Origin: an uncultured Thermofilaceae archaeon
Lineage (GTDB): Archaea > Thermoproteota > Thermoprotei > Thermofilales > B69-G16
Length of the DNA: 64,000 nucleotides
Direction: 5' to 3'
Assembly (NCBI GenBank): GCA_964501905.1
Contig: CAZCTW010000009.1
Location: forward strand, 11,342 to 75,341
Below are positions 16,558-49,098 of the stretch, one piece after another. The position numbers were made by a program, and so were the translations under genes. Position 1 is the first letter of the stretch. Each line of letters begins with the position of its first letter. A model generated the notes under the pieces. The model was not told the origin of the DNA, ran no database searches, and was given only the letters and a program-made list of their open reading frames with translations.

Positions 16558-16642
16558 GGGCCCGTCGTCTAGTGGCTAGGGTCTCTGGCTAAGACGCCAC
16601 CCTCACGAGGTGGAGGTCCGGGTTCGATTCCCGGCGGGCCCA
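16558..16642 (+). tRNA. tRNA-Val(CAC) with a ~13-nt insertion (probable non-canonical intron) in the D-loop
   Basis: Acceptor GGGCCCG/CGGGCCC, anticodon arm CCACC-CTCACGA-GGTGG, T-arm CCGGG-TTCGATT-CCCGG. D stem GTCT/AGAC encloses 21 nt (AGTGGCTAGGGTCTCTGGCTA) with TGGCTA duplicated. Confidence 0.85.
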
Positions 16643-29132: not shown

Positions 29133-29531
29133 TCAACGCCGAGCAAAAGGAGCGCGGTCCTCCCTACTAAAAACAACATACCTAAATCCCCTCTTATTCT
29201 CAAACCTAACGTCAAAATACCTCACCAACTCCTCCTTCACTCTCCTATAAAAATACCGATTAGCTATATAAGAGGGAGGCTCCACCCTCGAAACAAGCCC
29301 TCTAACTCTCCTAAAATCCAACGTACCAAAAACATAAGCAGCATAACCATACTTCACCAAACTCCTAACCTTAACCGACACCCTACGAGACCTAGCACCA
29401 GCAACAATACACTCCGCCACCCTCAACACACAACCCAAAACACTACCCTGAACTCTCCCAACCCAACCCGACACCATACCAGCCATACCCCACAACCACA
29501 CCATATAAAACAAACACACCCCCCATCCCAT
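29133..29531 (-). CDS. Doubtful ORF (only the C-terminal ~80 aa look protein-like)
   Basis: 132 aa. The N-terminal half is G/W/V-rich, as expected from reading the G/T-rich strand of a skewed region. No motif recognised. Confidence 0.2.
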   Translation of the reverse strand: MGWGVCLFYMVWLWGMAGMVSGWVGRVQGSVLGCVLRVAECIVAGARSRRVSVKVRSLVKYGYAAYVFGTLDFRRVRGLVSRVEPPSYIANRYFYRRVKEELVRYFDVRFENKRGFRYVVFSREDRAPFARR

Positions 29532-29814
29532 ATCACCAAACTATTACAATCAAAAAACCCACGTACATACACAAACGCCAACACACCTCCACAACCTCAA
29601 CCAAACAAAACCCATGAACCAAAATACCAAAGAAACGAATATCCAACAACAAACCCTAAAACACACTACGACAAACACCTAACAAGACAAAAAACCACAT
29701 AACACCCCCAACAACAAACACTTACAAAAAAACCAAACGGAAAACTTAAAAACATAACCATATAATATAACACAGATGCAGACCCAGGGTTACGGCCCGG
29801 GGTCCAAGCCCCAA

Positions 29815-29939
29815 AGCGGGGTGGGGAAGCCAGGTAATCCCGCGGGGCTCATAAACCTCTGTCGGACAAAAACGAAAAAAGAGCCCCGACAGAGAATTGA
29901 GAGACCCCGAGGTCCCCGGTTCAAATCCGGGCCCCGCTA
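29815..29939 (+). tRNA. Initiator tRNA-Met(CAT) with a ~50-nt anticodon-loop intron
   Basis: A1:U72 acceptor AGCGGGG/CCCCGCT, anticodon stem CGGGG/CCCCG with three G:C pairs, loop CTCATA|intron|A. The intron holds a 9-bp hairpin CTCTGTCGG/CCGACAGAG, and TGAG pairs with the anticodon region. T-arm CCCGG-TTCAAAT-CCGGG. T-rich run follows. Confidence 0.9.
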
Positions 29940-30074
29940 TAGCCACTATTTTTTTTCTTTTCTTTCGAAAAGGAAACGAAATTTTTCTTTAATTATCGGT
30001 AATGGGACTCTAAGAGTTTTTCAAAAGTTTATCGGGAGTCACCGCGGGATTTTAGGTAGGTGGGGGTGGTTTGT

Positions 30075-31094
30075 TTATTGTTTGGTCCATCGTCCGTTTA
30101 TTTTTTTGTATAGTTTTTTCCATTTTTCTGCTGCTGTTTTTGTGTCGTATTTTTGTAGTAGGGTTAGTGCGTCTTGGAGTTTTTGTTGTTTGCGTTTTAT
30201 TTCGAATCCTATTTGTTGGGTGTATTTTTTGATGTCGTTTTTTCGGTAGATTACTAGTTGGTATGTTTCTTTGACTTTTACTTTCATGTTTTTTATTATG
30301 ATTTCTTCGTTTTCTTTTCGTACTTTTCTCCAGTGGCAGTGTATGTTTTTTAGTTTCAATAAGTATTCTACGAATTTTAGGAATTCTATGGAGGAATTGC
30401 CTATAGTTATTGCAATGTAAAGTTTGCCTTTGCTCGGAGAAACGCACGGCCCTCCGTCTCCGTCGAATGCTCCTTTTAGGAATTCGTTGGGGTATATGTA
30501 TGCTATGATTTTCCAGAGGTTTATTTTGCAGATGTAGCGTATTGTTGTTCCGTTGTGGTAGACTACGTATCTTCCGTCTTTTGTTTTGGATATTTGGTAT
30601 TTTTTGCCTGTTATTTTTGATAGTTTTTGTGCGTATTTTTCTGCGTAGTCTCGGTCTTTTACTCTTAGTTTTGCTGTGGTGCTTCGGCAGGCGTCTGTGA
30701 GTGCTGTTCCTATTATGTAGCCTAGTTCTGGGGCTGTTTTTAGTGGTGTTGTTCCTGGTTTTGTTTTGCCGGTGATCCACCAGTATATGGTCATTGGTGG
30801 TATTTTGATGCCTAGTTTTTCTTGGAGTTTTTTGGCTATTTTTCTGCGTCCTAGTTTTTTCATGGTTAGGGCTAGTTTGTAGGCTTTGTTGTATAGTAGG
30901 GCTTTTTGTAGTGGTGTGGGTTTGTATGGTATTAGTTCGTTATGATAGATTTTCTCGATTTGGTCTTTGGGGATTTTAGAGCGGTAGATTTTTTGAATTA
31001 TTTTCACCGCGTCTTCTATTTTGTAGCCTGCGGTTTTGAGGAGGAGTACCGCGTCGAAGATTTCAATAGGAATTTTCCTACTCTCCATACTCAT
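30075..31094 (-). CDS. LAGLIDADG-type (double-motif) endonuclease-like protein with N-terminal HTH region
   Basis: 339 aa. Motif 1 LGYIIGTALTDA, motif 2 FLKGAFDGDGG. N-terminal GRRKIAKKLQEKLGIKIPPMTIYWW is HTH-like. Confidence 0.7.
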   Translation of the reverse strand: MSMESRKIPIEIFDAVLLLKTAGYKIEDAVKIIQKIYRSKIPKDQIEKIYHNELIPYKPTPLQKALLYNKAYKLALTMKKLGRRKIAKKLQEKLGIKIPPMTIYWWITGKTKPGTTPLKTAPELGYIIGTALTDACRSTTAKLRVKDRDYAEKYAQKLSKITGKKYQISKTKDGRYVVYHNGTTIRYICKINLWKIIAYIYPNEFLKGAFDGDGGPCVSPSKGKLYIAITIGNSSIEFLKFVEYLLKLKNIHCHWRKVRKENEEIIIKNMKVKVKETYQLVIYRKNDIKKYTQQIGFEIKRKQQKLQDALTLLQKYDTKTAAEKWKKLYKKINGRWTKQ

Positions 31095-31099
31095 CCCCC

Positions 31100-31460
31100 C
31101 TCGCTCTCCGTCTAACAGAGTAGCGGGGTCGTATGGAGAGTCGCTGCTAATCTCTGACGATTTTCAGCCTCCTCGTGTCATCAGAGGCTCGCTGTGGCAG
31201 GGCTCCGCGCCCGCTGGTATGCCGGCCTCCCCTCCGGAGCCCTTCGCGGAGGAGAGGTAGGGGCCGGGCTTTTTGCCCGCTTAAGGCATGGCCTACAAGC
31301 GGGCGTCCGCAAGGCATAGCCTACGCGGACCTGAACCCCCAACCCTTCTCCCTCAACATCGTGGAGGGTTGGGGGTAAAAAAGAGCCCGGCTTTCCCCTC
31401 TGTGATGCGGTGACCCCCTCATTGGCTCGGGGATCCTGCCCAAACCCCAAGGTTTGGGCA
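31100..31460. other. GC-rich, hairpin-dense non-coding block (candidate structured RNA or replication/packaging origin)
   Basis: No credible ORF, only skew-generated shadows. Contains a 10-bp stem CCCCCAACCC/GGGTTGGGGG (31336-75), twin hairpins at 31275-31330, stem GGGCTCCG/CGGAGCCC (31200-41), and a 9-bp hairpin GCCCAAACC-CCAA-GGTTTGGGC (31438-59) 3 nt past the ATPase stop. Confidence 0.4.
31275..31330. repeat. Two abutting hairpins with different stems but near-identical 14-nt loops AAGGCAT(G/A)GCCTAC
   Basis: GCCCGCTT-AAGGCATGGCCTAC-AAGCGGGC followed directly by GTCCGC-AAGGCATAGCCTAC-GCGGAC. Each loop can itself form AGGC/GCCT. Confidence 0.7.
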
Positions 31461-31461
31461 T

Positions 31462-33279
31462 TCATTGGTATATTTGGAGGAGTATGTGCGCTTTTTCTGT
31501 GAGTTTTCCTTTTTCGTTTATGTATCCGTGTTTTCTGAGGGTTTTTCTCTCTTGGAGGGTTGTTTGTCCTTTCTGGTATTTTCTGATTAGGTGTGCTATT
31601 TTCTCCCACTTGTCTACGCGTCTGTGTTTTCTCTGGGGCGGCGTCGGGGTGTATCTGGGTTTTACCTTTATGTGGGCTATTCTCCCTCTCTGGGATGTTA
31701 TGCATTCTCCTGTTTCGAGTTTTTCGATTTTCGCTGTTAGTTCTCTATGTCTGCTGGGGGATAGGGCTTTGGCGGCTATTTCCGCGTCTACTCCGGTGCA
31801 GTGGAAGACCGCTATTGTCTCGGCGTTGTTTATGATTGAGCTGTGGAGGGTGCTGGGGGTTTGGGTTGCGGCTATTATCTTTACTCCGTGCTTCCTCCCC
31901 TCGTCCATTAAACGCTCTAGGAAGGTTTTCGTTTTGAGGAATCTGGGAGCCAGCCTCTGCGCCTCGTCTAGGACCAGCACGGTTTCCATGCTTGGAGGAT
32001 CGTAGTACAGGTTTTGGAGGAGGAACCAGGTGAAGACTGTTTTCTCGTAGTCGGTTTTTAGGCTGGATAGGTCGATTGCATATATTCCCTTGTCCTCGGG
32101 CGGGGGTAGGTTTCTGTTGAAGCACCTACCCGTAAGCCTGGAGAGCCTCCTCTTGACGGCTGCGGCGGCGTTTCTCTCGTCTTCCCTCCTAATATCCATC
32201 GAGGACAGCGCTTCGTACAGGGTTAGGGGGGTTACGGGCAGTCCTAGCTTTTCCACTTGGAGGGCGGCTTTTCTAGCTACTTCATACTGGATTGGGCTGA
32301 ACTCGCTCCTCTGGGTGGTGTAGAAGAGTATCTCCTCTATGCTATCCCATCCGTGGTCGAAGCCTAGCCAGAAGGGGTTTACGTAAACGTCTACGCCGGG
32401 GATTAGCCTATAGCCTAGACCCGCGTATTCCCCGTATCAGTCCAAGATCAGCACTCTCTTCTCTCTGCCCAGCCCCTCCACCAGCCTGGCTATAAACGTG
32501 CTCTTGCCCGAGCCGCTCGCGCCAATCACTAACACGTGGGTCTCCACTTCTATACCGGTGATCCCATTCCTGGTGCAGCCTATTTCAACTCCTTTATCCT
32601 CGTGGTAGGTGGAGCCTCTGACCATAGCGCTGGCCGTCTCCCACACGTACTCGCAGGCCTTTAGCTTCGTCAACTCTTTCGCCCGCCTGCCCCCTAGGGG
32701 GTAGAGCCCGGTCTTTAACAAAACCTTCTTCCCCGTCTTCATCCCCTCTATTACGAGCACGGCGGCTCCCGGGTTTCCATAGGTTTTAATCCTAGAGCCC
32801 ACCTTCAGTTTAGGCAGCTCGGCTAGAGGCTTGAGCTTAAAGCCCATCTGCTCTAGCGCCCAGCGAGGGCTGTAGCCGTCATCTAGGATGAGGTAATGTT
32901 TCTCGAAGGCTATTAGACACCTGTTATCCAGGGTCCTTACGAAGTATAGCCTACACTTCTCGGGCACGTTAAGCTTTAACTCGAAATCCCCGGGAACCCC
33001 CGTTACGGCGTAGATTTCCAGCCGGCATCCCCACAGTCCGTGTGCTCCTCTAAAATACTCCCCGTTCCACCTGTAGCTCAGGTATAAGAGTTTGAGGATC
33101 TTGGGGACTAGGATTGACGAGAGTATGGAGATGATGACTGGCAGGAAGCTAAATCTTATCCACGGCAGGGCTATTATCGAGCCTATGTAGATTATCCAGG
33201 GCGGCATCCTGGTTTTTAAGCCGTTGAGTATTTGCGTTGTTATCTCCTTCAAAGCCTCGAGGGGCATATCCTCAGCCAT
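31462..33279 (-). pseudogene. Membrane-anchored HerA/VirB4-like (DUF87-type) ATPase interrupted by one in-frame TGA
   Basis: ORFs 32437-33279 and 31462-32256 are in the same frame, and 32257-32436 is open. The single stop at 32437-32439 sits in VLILD*YGEY (hhhhDxxGEY motif). Two N-terminal TM helices, Walker A GASGSGKST, Walker B VLVLDEAQ. Confidence 0.75.
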
Positions 33280-40012: not shown

Positions 40013-40108
40013 TGGGCCCGGCGGGATTCGAACCCGCGACCCCCCGGTTGTGCCCTCGGCTACGAGCCGAAATGAGCCGGGTGCTCTACCTAGCTGAGCT
40101 ACGGGCCC
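40013..40108 (-). tRNA. tRNA(CAT) (elongator Met or Ile2) with a ~22-nt anticodon-loop intron
   Basis: Acceptor GGGCCCG/CGGGCCC, D-arm GCTC-AGCTAGGTA-GAGC, anticodon stem CCCGG/CCGGG enclosing CTCAT-[TTCGGCTCGTAGCCGAGGGCAC]-AA, T-arm GCGGG-TTCGAAT-CCCGC. Exact junctions are ambiguous. Confidence 0.85.
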
Positions 40109-47116: not shown

Positions 47117-47219
47117 CGCCGGGGCCGGGATTCGAACCCGGGCGTCCCTAATGGGACACGGACTCTCACTGGGCGCCGTTAAGCTAGGCCCGCGCCTTAG
47201 TCCACTCGGCCACCCCGGC
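47117..47219 (-). tRNA. tRNA-Ser (anticodon most consistent with TGA) with a ~17-nt non-canonically placed intron
   Basis: Acceptor GCCGGGG/CCCCGGC with G73. Class II variable arm GTCCC-ATTA-GGGAC. Anticodon stem CGGGC/GTCCG encloses 24 nt CT[AGCTTAACGGCGCCCAG]TGAGA. T-arm CCGGG-TTCGAAT-CCCGG. Confidence 0.75.
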
Positions 47220-49005: not shown

Positions 49006-49098
49006 CGGGCCCGCCGGGATTCGAACCCGGGACCACCGGCTGTCTACAATTTGGTAATTACCGCAGGCCGGCACTCTATCCAGCTGAGCTACGGGCCC
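49006..49098 (-). tRNA. tRNA-Arg(GCG) with a 19-nt canonical (37/38) intron
   Basis: Acceptor GGGCCCG/CGGGCCC with G73. Anticodon stem CCGGC/GCCGG enclosing CTGCGG[TAATTACCAAATTGTAGAC]A. T-arm CCGGG-TTCGAAT-CCCGG. Confidence 0.9.

Follow-up and report, generated by a model that had tools for sequence, protein, structure and literature searches.

Within a contig of an uncultured Thermofilaceae archaeon (CAZCTW010000009.1), the 64,000-nucleotide stretch analysed here, termed the window, contains a G+C-rich block that is very probably a conserved structured RNA gene. The gene is located on the minus strand, between the gene of a DNA-translocase ATPase and the gene of a LAGLIDADG endonuclease-like protein. 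All coordinates are those of the window unless a contig is named. In the order of the minus strand, the locus comprises:

31462–33279, minus strand: HerA/VirB4/CedD-like DNA-translocase ATPase gene, a 605-codon frame with an in-frame TGA at 32437–32439
31164–31466, minus strand: conserved core of the RNA gene, 303 nucleotides (nt), G+C 0.64; RNA nt 1 is window position 31466
31095–31163, minus strand: leader of the LAGLIDADG gene and start of an inserted cassette; no homology to contig L129, the closest relative, past 31164; fold z = -5.3
30075–31094, minus strand: LAGLIDADG_3 endonuclease-like gene, 339 amino acids (aa), Pfam E = 3.8e-9

The G+C-rich block and its homologs

A sequence-only reading of the window had described the block 31100–31460 as its most G+C-rich DNA, devoid of credible open reading frames (ORFs), packed with stable stems and possibly a structured non-coding RNA (ncRNA); these observations are borne out. 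The top 300-nt stretch of the window is 31165–31464, with a G+C of 0.643 against a mean of 0.41 (standard deviation 0.06), and the next two 150-nt G+C peaks are tRNA genes with introns. The mechanical ORFs of 41–74 aa found in the block are not conserved across its homologs, and the homologs differ by indels of lengths that are not multiples of three. Both strands fold stably (z = -6.8 for plus and -6.3 for minus), with none of 100 shuffles equally stable. The minus-strand T6 run is located at 31382–31377, and all the stems that had been named are real, with lengths here of 10, 12 and 9 base pairs (bp):

31437–31446/31451–31460: 10-bp stem TGCCCAAACC/GGTTTGGGCA, directly after the ATPase stop
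31335–31346/31365–31376: 12-bp stem ACCCCCAACCCT/AGGGTTGGGGGT
31199–31207/31235–31243: 9-bp stem AGGGCTCCG/CGGAGCCCT, with competing pairings present
31275–31304 and 31305–31330: twin hairpins with the common loop AAGGCAT(G/A)GCCTAC

The block is not a single unit: the part at 31164–31466 is a conserved element and 31095–31163 is the lineage-specific LAGLIDADG leader. The few relatives found for the LAGLIDADG protein stand in other contexts and have no comparable block; those of the ATPase led to contigs L129 and L130 (89% identity) and L132 (42% identity), each with a G+C-rich block right after the ATPase stop. The 19-mer CCGCGAAGGGCTCCGGAGG, invariant among the window, L129, L130 and L132, was scanned against the metagenome collection; the scan added one lineage (L137, L143), more copies of two known ones and chance matches in high-G+C bacteria. 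The element is thus present in four lineages of uncultured heat-loving archaea, namely the window, L129/L130/L151, L132 and L137/L143, and its core is homologous to L129 8877–9176, L132 2214–2533 and L137 328–673. A hidden Markov model built on the four lineages detects a single copy at each locus and none beside LAGLIDADG homologs that lack the RNA. One of the RNA-bearing samples (IMG 3300014887) comes from hydrothermal sediment of the Guaymas Basin (PMC8065059).

The window and L129 are collinear over 4.1 kb at 84.7% identity, from RadA through the ATPase, and the RNA is the best conserved part of this stretch (92.4%, versus 84.1% for RadA and 81.9% and 89.6% for the two ATPase halves). The homology ends exactly at 31164 (...GGAGGCTGA) and resumes only in a tRNA-Met gene. 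Invariant stretches between lineages are 14–20-mers, though the adjacent ATPase protein is only 42% identical. The motifs UCCGCGAAGGGCUCCGGAGG, CGGGCGCGGAGCCC and GGGGAAAG are common to all four lineages, as is CACGAU within hairpin H4 (see below).

No family of Rfam (4227 families compared) matches the block at gathering thresholds. Permissive searches with the window and its contiguous homologs gave chance-level matches only, the best being RNaseP-T (11.9 bits, gathering 60; E = 4.6, 45 nt) and Pyrobaculum sR209 (14 bits, gathering 42; E = 5), the latter for one hairpin only. A loose pattern of the twin loops returned only chance bacterial matches from genome contigs, and the invariant 19-mer one chance coding match from viral contigs. 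Searches of plasmid and phage records with the RNA (blastn) and the ATPase (tblastn), and of IMG/VR for ATPase relatives, found nothing relevant; a scan for bacterial-type promoters and terminators was uninformative.

Anatomy of the RNA and covariation of its helices

In the 5′ to 3′ direction of the RNA, the following elements can be distinguished, all on the minus strand:

31461–31466: RAUGAA, conserved 5′ element before H1, overlapping the ATPase stop codon
31437–31460: H1, 10-bp hairpin at the 5′ end; 4 of its 10 pairs vary on both sides between lineages, all still paired
31414–31433: H2, hairpin resembling a kink-loop (K-loop), CCCC-GA-N2-3-CAAUGA-GGGG, its stem capped by tandem sheared G.A pairs
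31384–31398: GGGG-AAA-GCCGGGCU, 5′ strands of the G4:C4 helix and of H3, with partners at 31259–31270
31376–31383: CUUUUUUA, linker in the junction and site of the T6 run; UUUUUUACCC is invariant in the four lineages
31336–31375: H4, long hairpin with an outer stem particular to each lineage and a conserved inner part, CUCC-ACGAU...GGAG-AA
31275–31330: H5 and H6, twin hairpins of a variable periphery; L132 and L137 have a single unrelated 10–12-bp hairpin instead
31259–31270: AGCCCGGC-CCCU, 3′ strands of H3 and G4:C4
31199–31257: 3′ domain with a putative pseudoknot, nearly invariant, holding the invariant UCCGCGAAGGGCUCCGGAGG and CGGGCGCGGAGCCC
31247–31257 with 31226–31236: Ha, 11-bp hairpin with three varying pair positions, one changed on both sides, all paired
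31166–31189: H8, 7-bp hairpin and last helix of the contiguous core; U-A to C-G and U.G to C-G changes between lineages

The sequences CCCCGA and CAAUGAGGGG of H2 are invariant in the four lineages, and the weak match to Pyrobaculum sR209 mentioned above falls on the K-turn hairpin of that H/ACA-like RNA. By its motif, H2 may be a K-loop of the type bound by archaeal L7Ae. The joining segment after H2 (J2) is variable. H3, with three pairs changed on both sides, closes a central multi-helix junction; the G4:C4 helix stays paired through G-U. In the 3′ domain, Ha variants use G-U only on the minus strand, and the Ha loop AGGGCUC (31237–31243) is complementary to GAGCCCU (31199–31205), suggesting a pseudoknot. 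The letters of the stem GGGCTCCG/CGGAGCCC of the sequence-only reading are present; the comparative data nevertheless favour a covarying 11-bp hairpin (Ha) with a loop-to-downstream pseudoknot over a continuous 9-bp stem.

Two other assignments were rejected. A P4-like pseudoknot AGAGG/CCUCU is broken by a change in L129 that fits hairpin H8, and the UGAUGA and CUGA of the window, which might indicate a C/D box RNA, are not kept in L132 or L137.

Compensatory changes, for which homologs had been called for, are found in the four sequences. When these were checked helix by helix, pairs changed on both sides numbered nine: four in H1, three in H3 and one each in Ha and H8. On the minus strand, 208 of 225 cells are Watson–Crick pairs, 12 are G-U and 5 are mismatched; the same cells read on the plus strand give 208, 1 and 16, respectively. 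The pair counts that follow were taken on a hand-padded, gapless alignment of the core because MAFFT alignments misplace H3 and H8. The named structure was compared with controls in which the partners were slid by 1–3 columns:

Cells paired: 97.6% in the named structure, 43–61% in the controls
Pairs with both sides changed: 9 in the named structure, 0–2 in the controls
Covariation score: 0.248 in the named structure, at most 0.088 in the controls

None of 500 shuffles reaches the covariation score or the percentage of paired cells, and two reach the count of both-side changes. On an independent, unfitted MAFFT alignment, RNAalifold recovers H1, H2, G4:C4, Ha and part of H8. These figures support the structure and fall short of being conclusive, since the alignment was fitted by hand and comprises only four sequences.

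The asymmetry of G-U pairs points to an RNA transcribed from the minus strand, and it bears directly on the proposals that the block is a replication or packaging origin, or that its T6 run ends the ATPase transcript. A DNA-level site of this kind (an origin or a recombination site), or a terminator or 3′ untranslated region (UTR) of the ATPase gene, would account for the dense inverted repeats, the position after the ATPase stop and the T6 run. It is extremely unlikely: only one strand accommodates the 12 G-U pairs, unlike what a cruciform or duplex site would show, neither iterons nor an AT-rich unwinding stretch were found, and the sequence is absent from the plasmid, phage and IMG/VR collections. 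The element is kept where the ATPase gene is deleted, and a 300-nt structure is unneeded for archaeal termination. The T6 run itself lies within a covarying helix pair, and TTTTTTACCC is invariant in the multi-helix junction in all lineages, including one with the ATPase cut to its last 30–40 codons.

Signals of expression are seen in two lineages. In L132 and L137, TTATAA and TTTATAAA, which are promoter-like TATA boxes, lie 27–28 nt before the conserved 5′ GAUGAA, and in L132 a T5 run lies shortly past the tail. The general marks of a stand-alone ncRNA gene are thus found, namely conservation beyond that of the neighbours, compensatory changes, strand-specific G-U pairs and, as signals of its own, the TATA boxes of L132 and L137 and the T5 run of L132. 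The window has no T-run between the RNA core and the LAGLIDADG ORF, so that read-through into the endonuclease gene is likely.

Closing helix, inserted cassette and neighbouring genes

The segment that follows H2 finds its partner, in L132 and L137, in a 3′ tail immediately past H8 (CCCUGCCUAU:AUGGGCGGGG and AACCCCGCC:GGCGGGGUU). The window and L129 have no such tail directly after H8; their 3′ strand lies beyond an inserted gene. The features concerned are as follows:

31131–31141 with 31080–31090, minus strand: 11-bp helix ACUCUCCAUAC/GUAUGGAGAGU, enclosing GAGGGGGG and the AUG of the LAGLIDADG gene
30034–30045, minus strand: closing strand GCGGUGACUCCC, pairing with GGGGGUCACCGC (31407–31418)
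30027–30052, minus strand: detached 3′ tail AAATCCCGCGGTGACTCCCGATAAAC, identical to L129 10246–10271 at 22 of 26 positions
L129 9177–10504: TnpB-like gene, truncated, 261 aa (RuvC and Zn-finger part only), with G+C-rich structured flanks; it replaces the LAGLIDADG cassette at the same site

Between the RNA core and the tRNA, nothing but the detached tail is conserved with L129. Its core, GCGGUGAC(U/C)CCC, is a 12-bp complement of GGGGGUCACCGC and the best complement in the 1.2-kb downstream stretch, in the window and L129 alike; it is matched by none of 500 shuffles of the window and by two of 500 of L129. A U-to-C change between the window and L129 in the closing strand leaves the pair intact. 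A closing helix is accordingly found in all four lineages at the same topological place, with unrelated sequences. With its closing strand on the far side of the LAGLIDADG gene, the RNA gene contains the cassette (31163 to about 30053), which separates H8 from that strand.

The cassette is flanked by the short repeat AAAATC (31164–31159 and 30053–30048), and the empty site predicted from the sequence would be GGAGGCTGAAAATCCCGCGGTGAC. The flanks of the cassette ORF measure 69 nt (the leader) and about 22 nt. No bulge–helix–bulge was found at the cassette junctions of the window or L129 by strict and relaxed pattern searches and cofolding, which unusual, more distant motifs could escape. A group I intron was also rejected: there is no Rfam match (RF00028, P3–P9 core) and the ORF flanks are too short for such a core.

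The LAGLIDADG protein combines two LAGLIDADG motifs with two N-terminal helix–turn–helix-like repeats, and no PDB sequence matched it. Its homologs are few and occur with and without the RNA (without it in L006, L007 and L154); another protein search, this time using a LAGLIDADG profile, contributed just two contigs of an unrelated organism, which are also RNA-less. In L129 there may be a faint trace of the 3′ end of the LAGLIDADG gene. The 11-bp helix around the start codon may hold back translation of the endonuclease.

In three of the four lineages the RNA lies upstream of a same-strand LAGLIDADG-like ORF, and in the window the start codon is buried in a hairpin and no T-run separates the two. 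The RNA might accordingly be a cis leader of the endonuclease gene, either as a 5′ UTR controlling or stabilising the mRNA or as an RNA partner of the maturase-substrate or guide kind. This is very improbable, given that L129, which lacks the LAGLIDADG gene, retains an RNA 92% identical, that L132 has a T5 run and an AT-rich spacer before the ORF, that the ORF-adjacent leader is not conserved, and that homologous endonuclease genes exist without the RNA; a variable guide-like segment was not found. The RNA is the only constant member of the trio of ATPase, RNA and endonuclease, which argues against an endonuclease leader as well as against a terminator or 3′ UTR of the ATPase.

The ATPase is a member of the HerA/VirB4/FtsK group; the best NCBIfam match is CedD, with 73 bits (cut-off 600). 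The TGA in the window replaces a Trp conserved in homologs (LDWYGEY), and the gene is probably a pseudogene. The TGA can be viewed as a one-base pseudogenisation or as a sequencing or strain variant. In L132 and L131 the ATPase gene is intact, in L129 it is called as fragments, and in L137/L143 the last 30–40 codons are left. In L131 (1–9100), an intact homolog with 43% identity ends a same-strand run of about 8–9 genes without Pfam matches, including that of a 1204-aa protein; the run may encode an uncharacterised DNA-transfer or import apparatus. This contig stops 9 nt past the ATPase stop, before any place for the RNA.

In L137/L143 the RNA is located between TFS and a two-intron tRNA upstream and ribosomal protein S7 downstream. 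The tRNA genes that bound or resemble those bounding the module are as follows:

L143 1472–1606, minus strand: two-intron tRNA between TFS and the ATPase remnant
29815–29939, plus strand: tRNA-Met (CAU) with a 52-nt intron, bounding the variable stretch on the far side; homology to L129 resumes here
47117–47219, minus strand: intron-containing tRNA of class II type whose variable arm is long (42.4 bits); second-highest G+C peak, missed by default scans

Neither ARAGORN nor the Rfam run at gathering thresholds over the entire window detected the tRNA-Met, which emerged only in permissive mode (48.7 bits). Upstream of it on the plus strand, a stretch of about 260 nt (29500–29760) is almost purely A and C and overlaps a mechanical 132-aa ORF on the opposite strand. 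Intron-bearing tRNAs are typical of Thermoproteota-like archaea; the three tRNAs of the default run (16558–16642, 40013–40108 and 49006–49098) all have introns, one of them at a non-canonical position in the D-arm region.

These surroundings allow for an account in which the RNA serves a decaying integrative or conjugative element, which carried the LAGLIDADG gene and the RNA along with the VirB4/CedD-like ATPase and inserted next to tRNA genes. The RNA would be the last functional remnant of this element and could have a role in transfer or maintenance (addiction) or be a partner of the ATPase. The RNA always lies directly downstream of the ATPase gene or its last 30–40 codons, in two contexts (RadA...tRNA-Met and TFS–tRNA...S7), and a tRNA gene flanks the module in both; the intact ATPase homolog of L131 closes a multi-gene operon without Pfam matches, mobile genes are nearby, and the family is rare. 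Contigs L003 and L004 span window 31480–30007, that is, the interrupted RNA gene within about 20 nt at either end, and one of them has three differing bases at the upstream end. These contig ends hint at variable flanks in one community or, equally, at an assembly accident; one contig is from an ENA assembly and the other from a JGI assembly, possibly built from the same reads. Against this account, no integrase, attachment-site (att) or direct repeat and no element boundaries were found around the locus, and neither the RNA nor the ATPase is matched in the plasmid, phage and IMG/VR collections; support is thin for the island within which the sequence-only reading had placed the block. The tight constraint on the RNA also persists where the ATPase is dead or gone, which is unexpected for a part that serves it. 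An element RNA is, on balance, possible and clearly the less expected outcome.

A conserved RNA proposed to act in trans and its known counterparts

The reading preferred here, that of an autonomous, trans-acting ribonucleoprotein (RNP)-type RNA targeted by mobile genes, is held with slightly more confidence than doubt. According to it, the RNA would be read from the minus strand, with window positions 31466 to 31164 as the main body of an autonomous gene. It would fold into H1, the H2 K-loop, the H3-closed junction with the U6 linker and H4, the pseudoknotted 3′ domain and the closing helix. It would act through its shape, as a scaffold or catalyst in trans, most likely in an L7Ae-containing RNP. 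The free periphery (H1, outer H4 and twin hairpins) around a fixed core is the pattern of an RNA working by shape. Selfish genes would land at the 3′ end of the RNA gene because the gene is conserved: the LAGLIDADG cassette in the window and the TnpB-type element in the closest relative.

Several points weigh against this reading. In every lineage the RNA adjoins the same mobile-type ATPase gene or its remnant and, in both contexts seen, a tRNA gene is near; together they point to a possible arrival on an integrative element, rather than to a native host gene. Just four lineages are known and two pairs of them are close, so that the covariation stems from few independent events, counted on a core alignment hand-fitted to the structure. 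The K-loop of H2 is a motif match, and the pseudoknot is deduced from complementarity because both of its arms never vary. The sole TATA-like element in the window (AAATATAC, 3–10 nt upstream) is too close for the conserved 5′ end, and the internal U6 run could stop the archaeal polymerase. The closing helix of the window must form across 1.1 kb, with no splicing signal detected.

A further-reaching version of the autonomous RNA reading is doubtful. It proposes that large, pseudoknotted RNAs of the RNP type, perhaps catalytic, form a class of their own, of such importance to a lineage of uncultured hydrothermal archaea that homing endonuclease and TnpB genes take it as a landing site; in the window, the RNA would be expressed discontinuously or through a novel removal of the 1.1-kb insert. 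If this were true, inserts with endonuclease genes would have a third type of host RNA, next to rRNA and tRNA.

The RNA is previously undescribed; its kind, a G+C-rich structured ncRNA in an AT-rich thermophile, is known. The unusual feature is a protein-coding insert within an RNA gene without a recognisable intron signature, and it poses the question of how an RNA can work when 1.1 kb of inserted coding sequence parts the two strands of its closing helix. To our knowledge, very few large structured RNAs of archaea are known beyond rRNA, RNase P RNA and signal recognition particle (SRP) RNA. A conserved RNA of 300–400 nt lengthens this short list and is a candidate for a new ribonucleoprotein or ribozyme. 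The locus also offers a clean natural case of competition between selfish genes, in which a LAGLIDADG endonuclease and a TnpB-like gene vie for one site of a few nucleotides where an RNA gene ends.

Among known RNAs, RNase P RNA (types A and T) is similar in size, in the GGGGAAAG that precedes a helix around a multi-hairpin domain, in the long-range closing helices and in the likely L7Ae site. The RNA of the window could be regarded as a very divergent housekeeping RNA, most plausibly RNase P RNA, with a closing helix, a hairpin, GGGGAAAG, the helix around the multi-hairpin domain and a pseudoknotted 3′ part. The succession of GGGGAAAG and CCGGGCUC is reminiscent of conserved region I of RNase P RNA, which reads GAGGAAAGUCCGGGCUC in E. 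coli. Archaeal RNase P RNA binds L7Ae at K-turns, which would fit, as would the size and G+C content and the preference of homing endonuclease genes for essential RNA genes. The identification is nonetheless highly improbable. On the contiguous RNAs of L132 and L137, no RNase P or SRP model matches at E <= 10, and the score of the window is that of the chance-level RNaseP-T match given above. Past GGAAAG, the bases form the covarying helix H3 with a strand 110 nt downstream, unlike an invariant P4 strand; reading the sequences by eye revealed no conserved P4 partner and no ACAGAA..GGCUUA motif; and the hairpins enclosed by H3 come in the opposite order to P8–P9–P10/12. The invariant P4 helix AGGAAAGUCC with ..GGCUUA.. 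(RF00373, RF02357) is thus missing, only GGGGAAAG is invariant, and the conserved motifs differ. Archaeal SRP RNA (RF01857) gave no match at E <= 10 either.

The H2 hairpin, which by sequence has the signature of a K-loop, shares GGCAGGAUC...CCCGAG...AUGAGGGG with the consensus of the Pyrobaculum H/ACA-like sR209 (PyrR209; PMC4652768), and an ANA-like triplet follows. H/ACA-like guides have 8–13 bp below the G.A pairs (10 in productive guides) and the ACA/ANA 14–15 nt from the closing pair (PMC4652768). In the window the H2 stem has 4–5 bp and the ACA is 10–11 nt away, and PyrR209 scores 14 bits versus 42, so an H/ACA guide was rejected. Unlike in such guides, the hairpin constitutes only about 7% of a much larger RNA.

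As with the HEARO or omega RNA of IscB and with GIR1 before I-DirI, a pseudoknotted RNA of roughly 300 nt lies right 5′ of a same-strand endonuclease ORF. An omega RNA/HEARO was rejected: there is no Rfam match, the linkage is not obligatory in either direction, a guide-like variable end is lacking, and the nuclease family is unrelated. The arrangement is also comparable to the LAGLIDADG inserts in crenarchaeal rRNA introns (I-DmoI) and group I introns (PMC6125680), where a gene whose presence is polymorphic between close relatives lies inside a structured RNA gene, with conserved RNA on both sides. Unlike in those introns, the host is neither rRNA nor tRNA, there is no bulge–helix–bulge and no group I core, and a 6-nt direct repeat flanks the insert; in two lineages the endonuclease gene stands just outside the RNA, unlike intron-borne LAGLIDADG genes.

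Klein, Misulovin and Eddy reportedly found the Hgc RNAs of Methanocaldococcus and Pyrococcus in 2002 by screening for G+C content. The RNA of the window matches no Hgc family of Rfam by sequence or model and, unlike the Hgc RNAs, is two to three times longer and has a putatively pseudoknotted core, a closing helix and an interruption by a protein gene. As with the Hgc RNAs, a sharp G+C island in an AT-rich thermophile corresponds to a structured RNA gene, and each of the three highest G+C peaks of the window is an RNA gene. G+C peaks remain a good finder of ncRNA in metagenome bins of AT-rich thermophiles, where intron-rich RNA genes escape default tRNA and Rfam runs.

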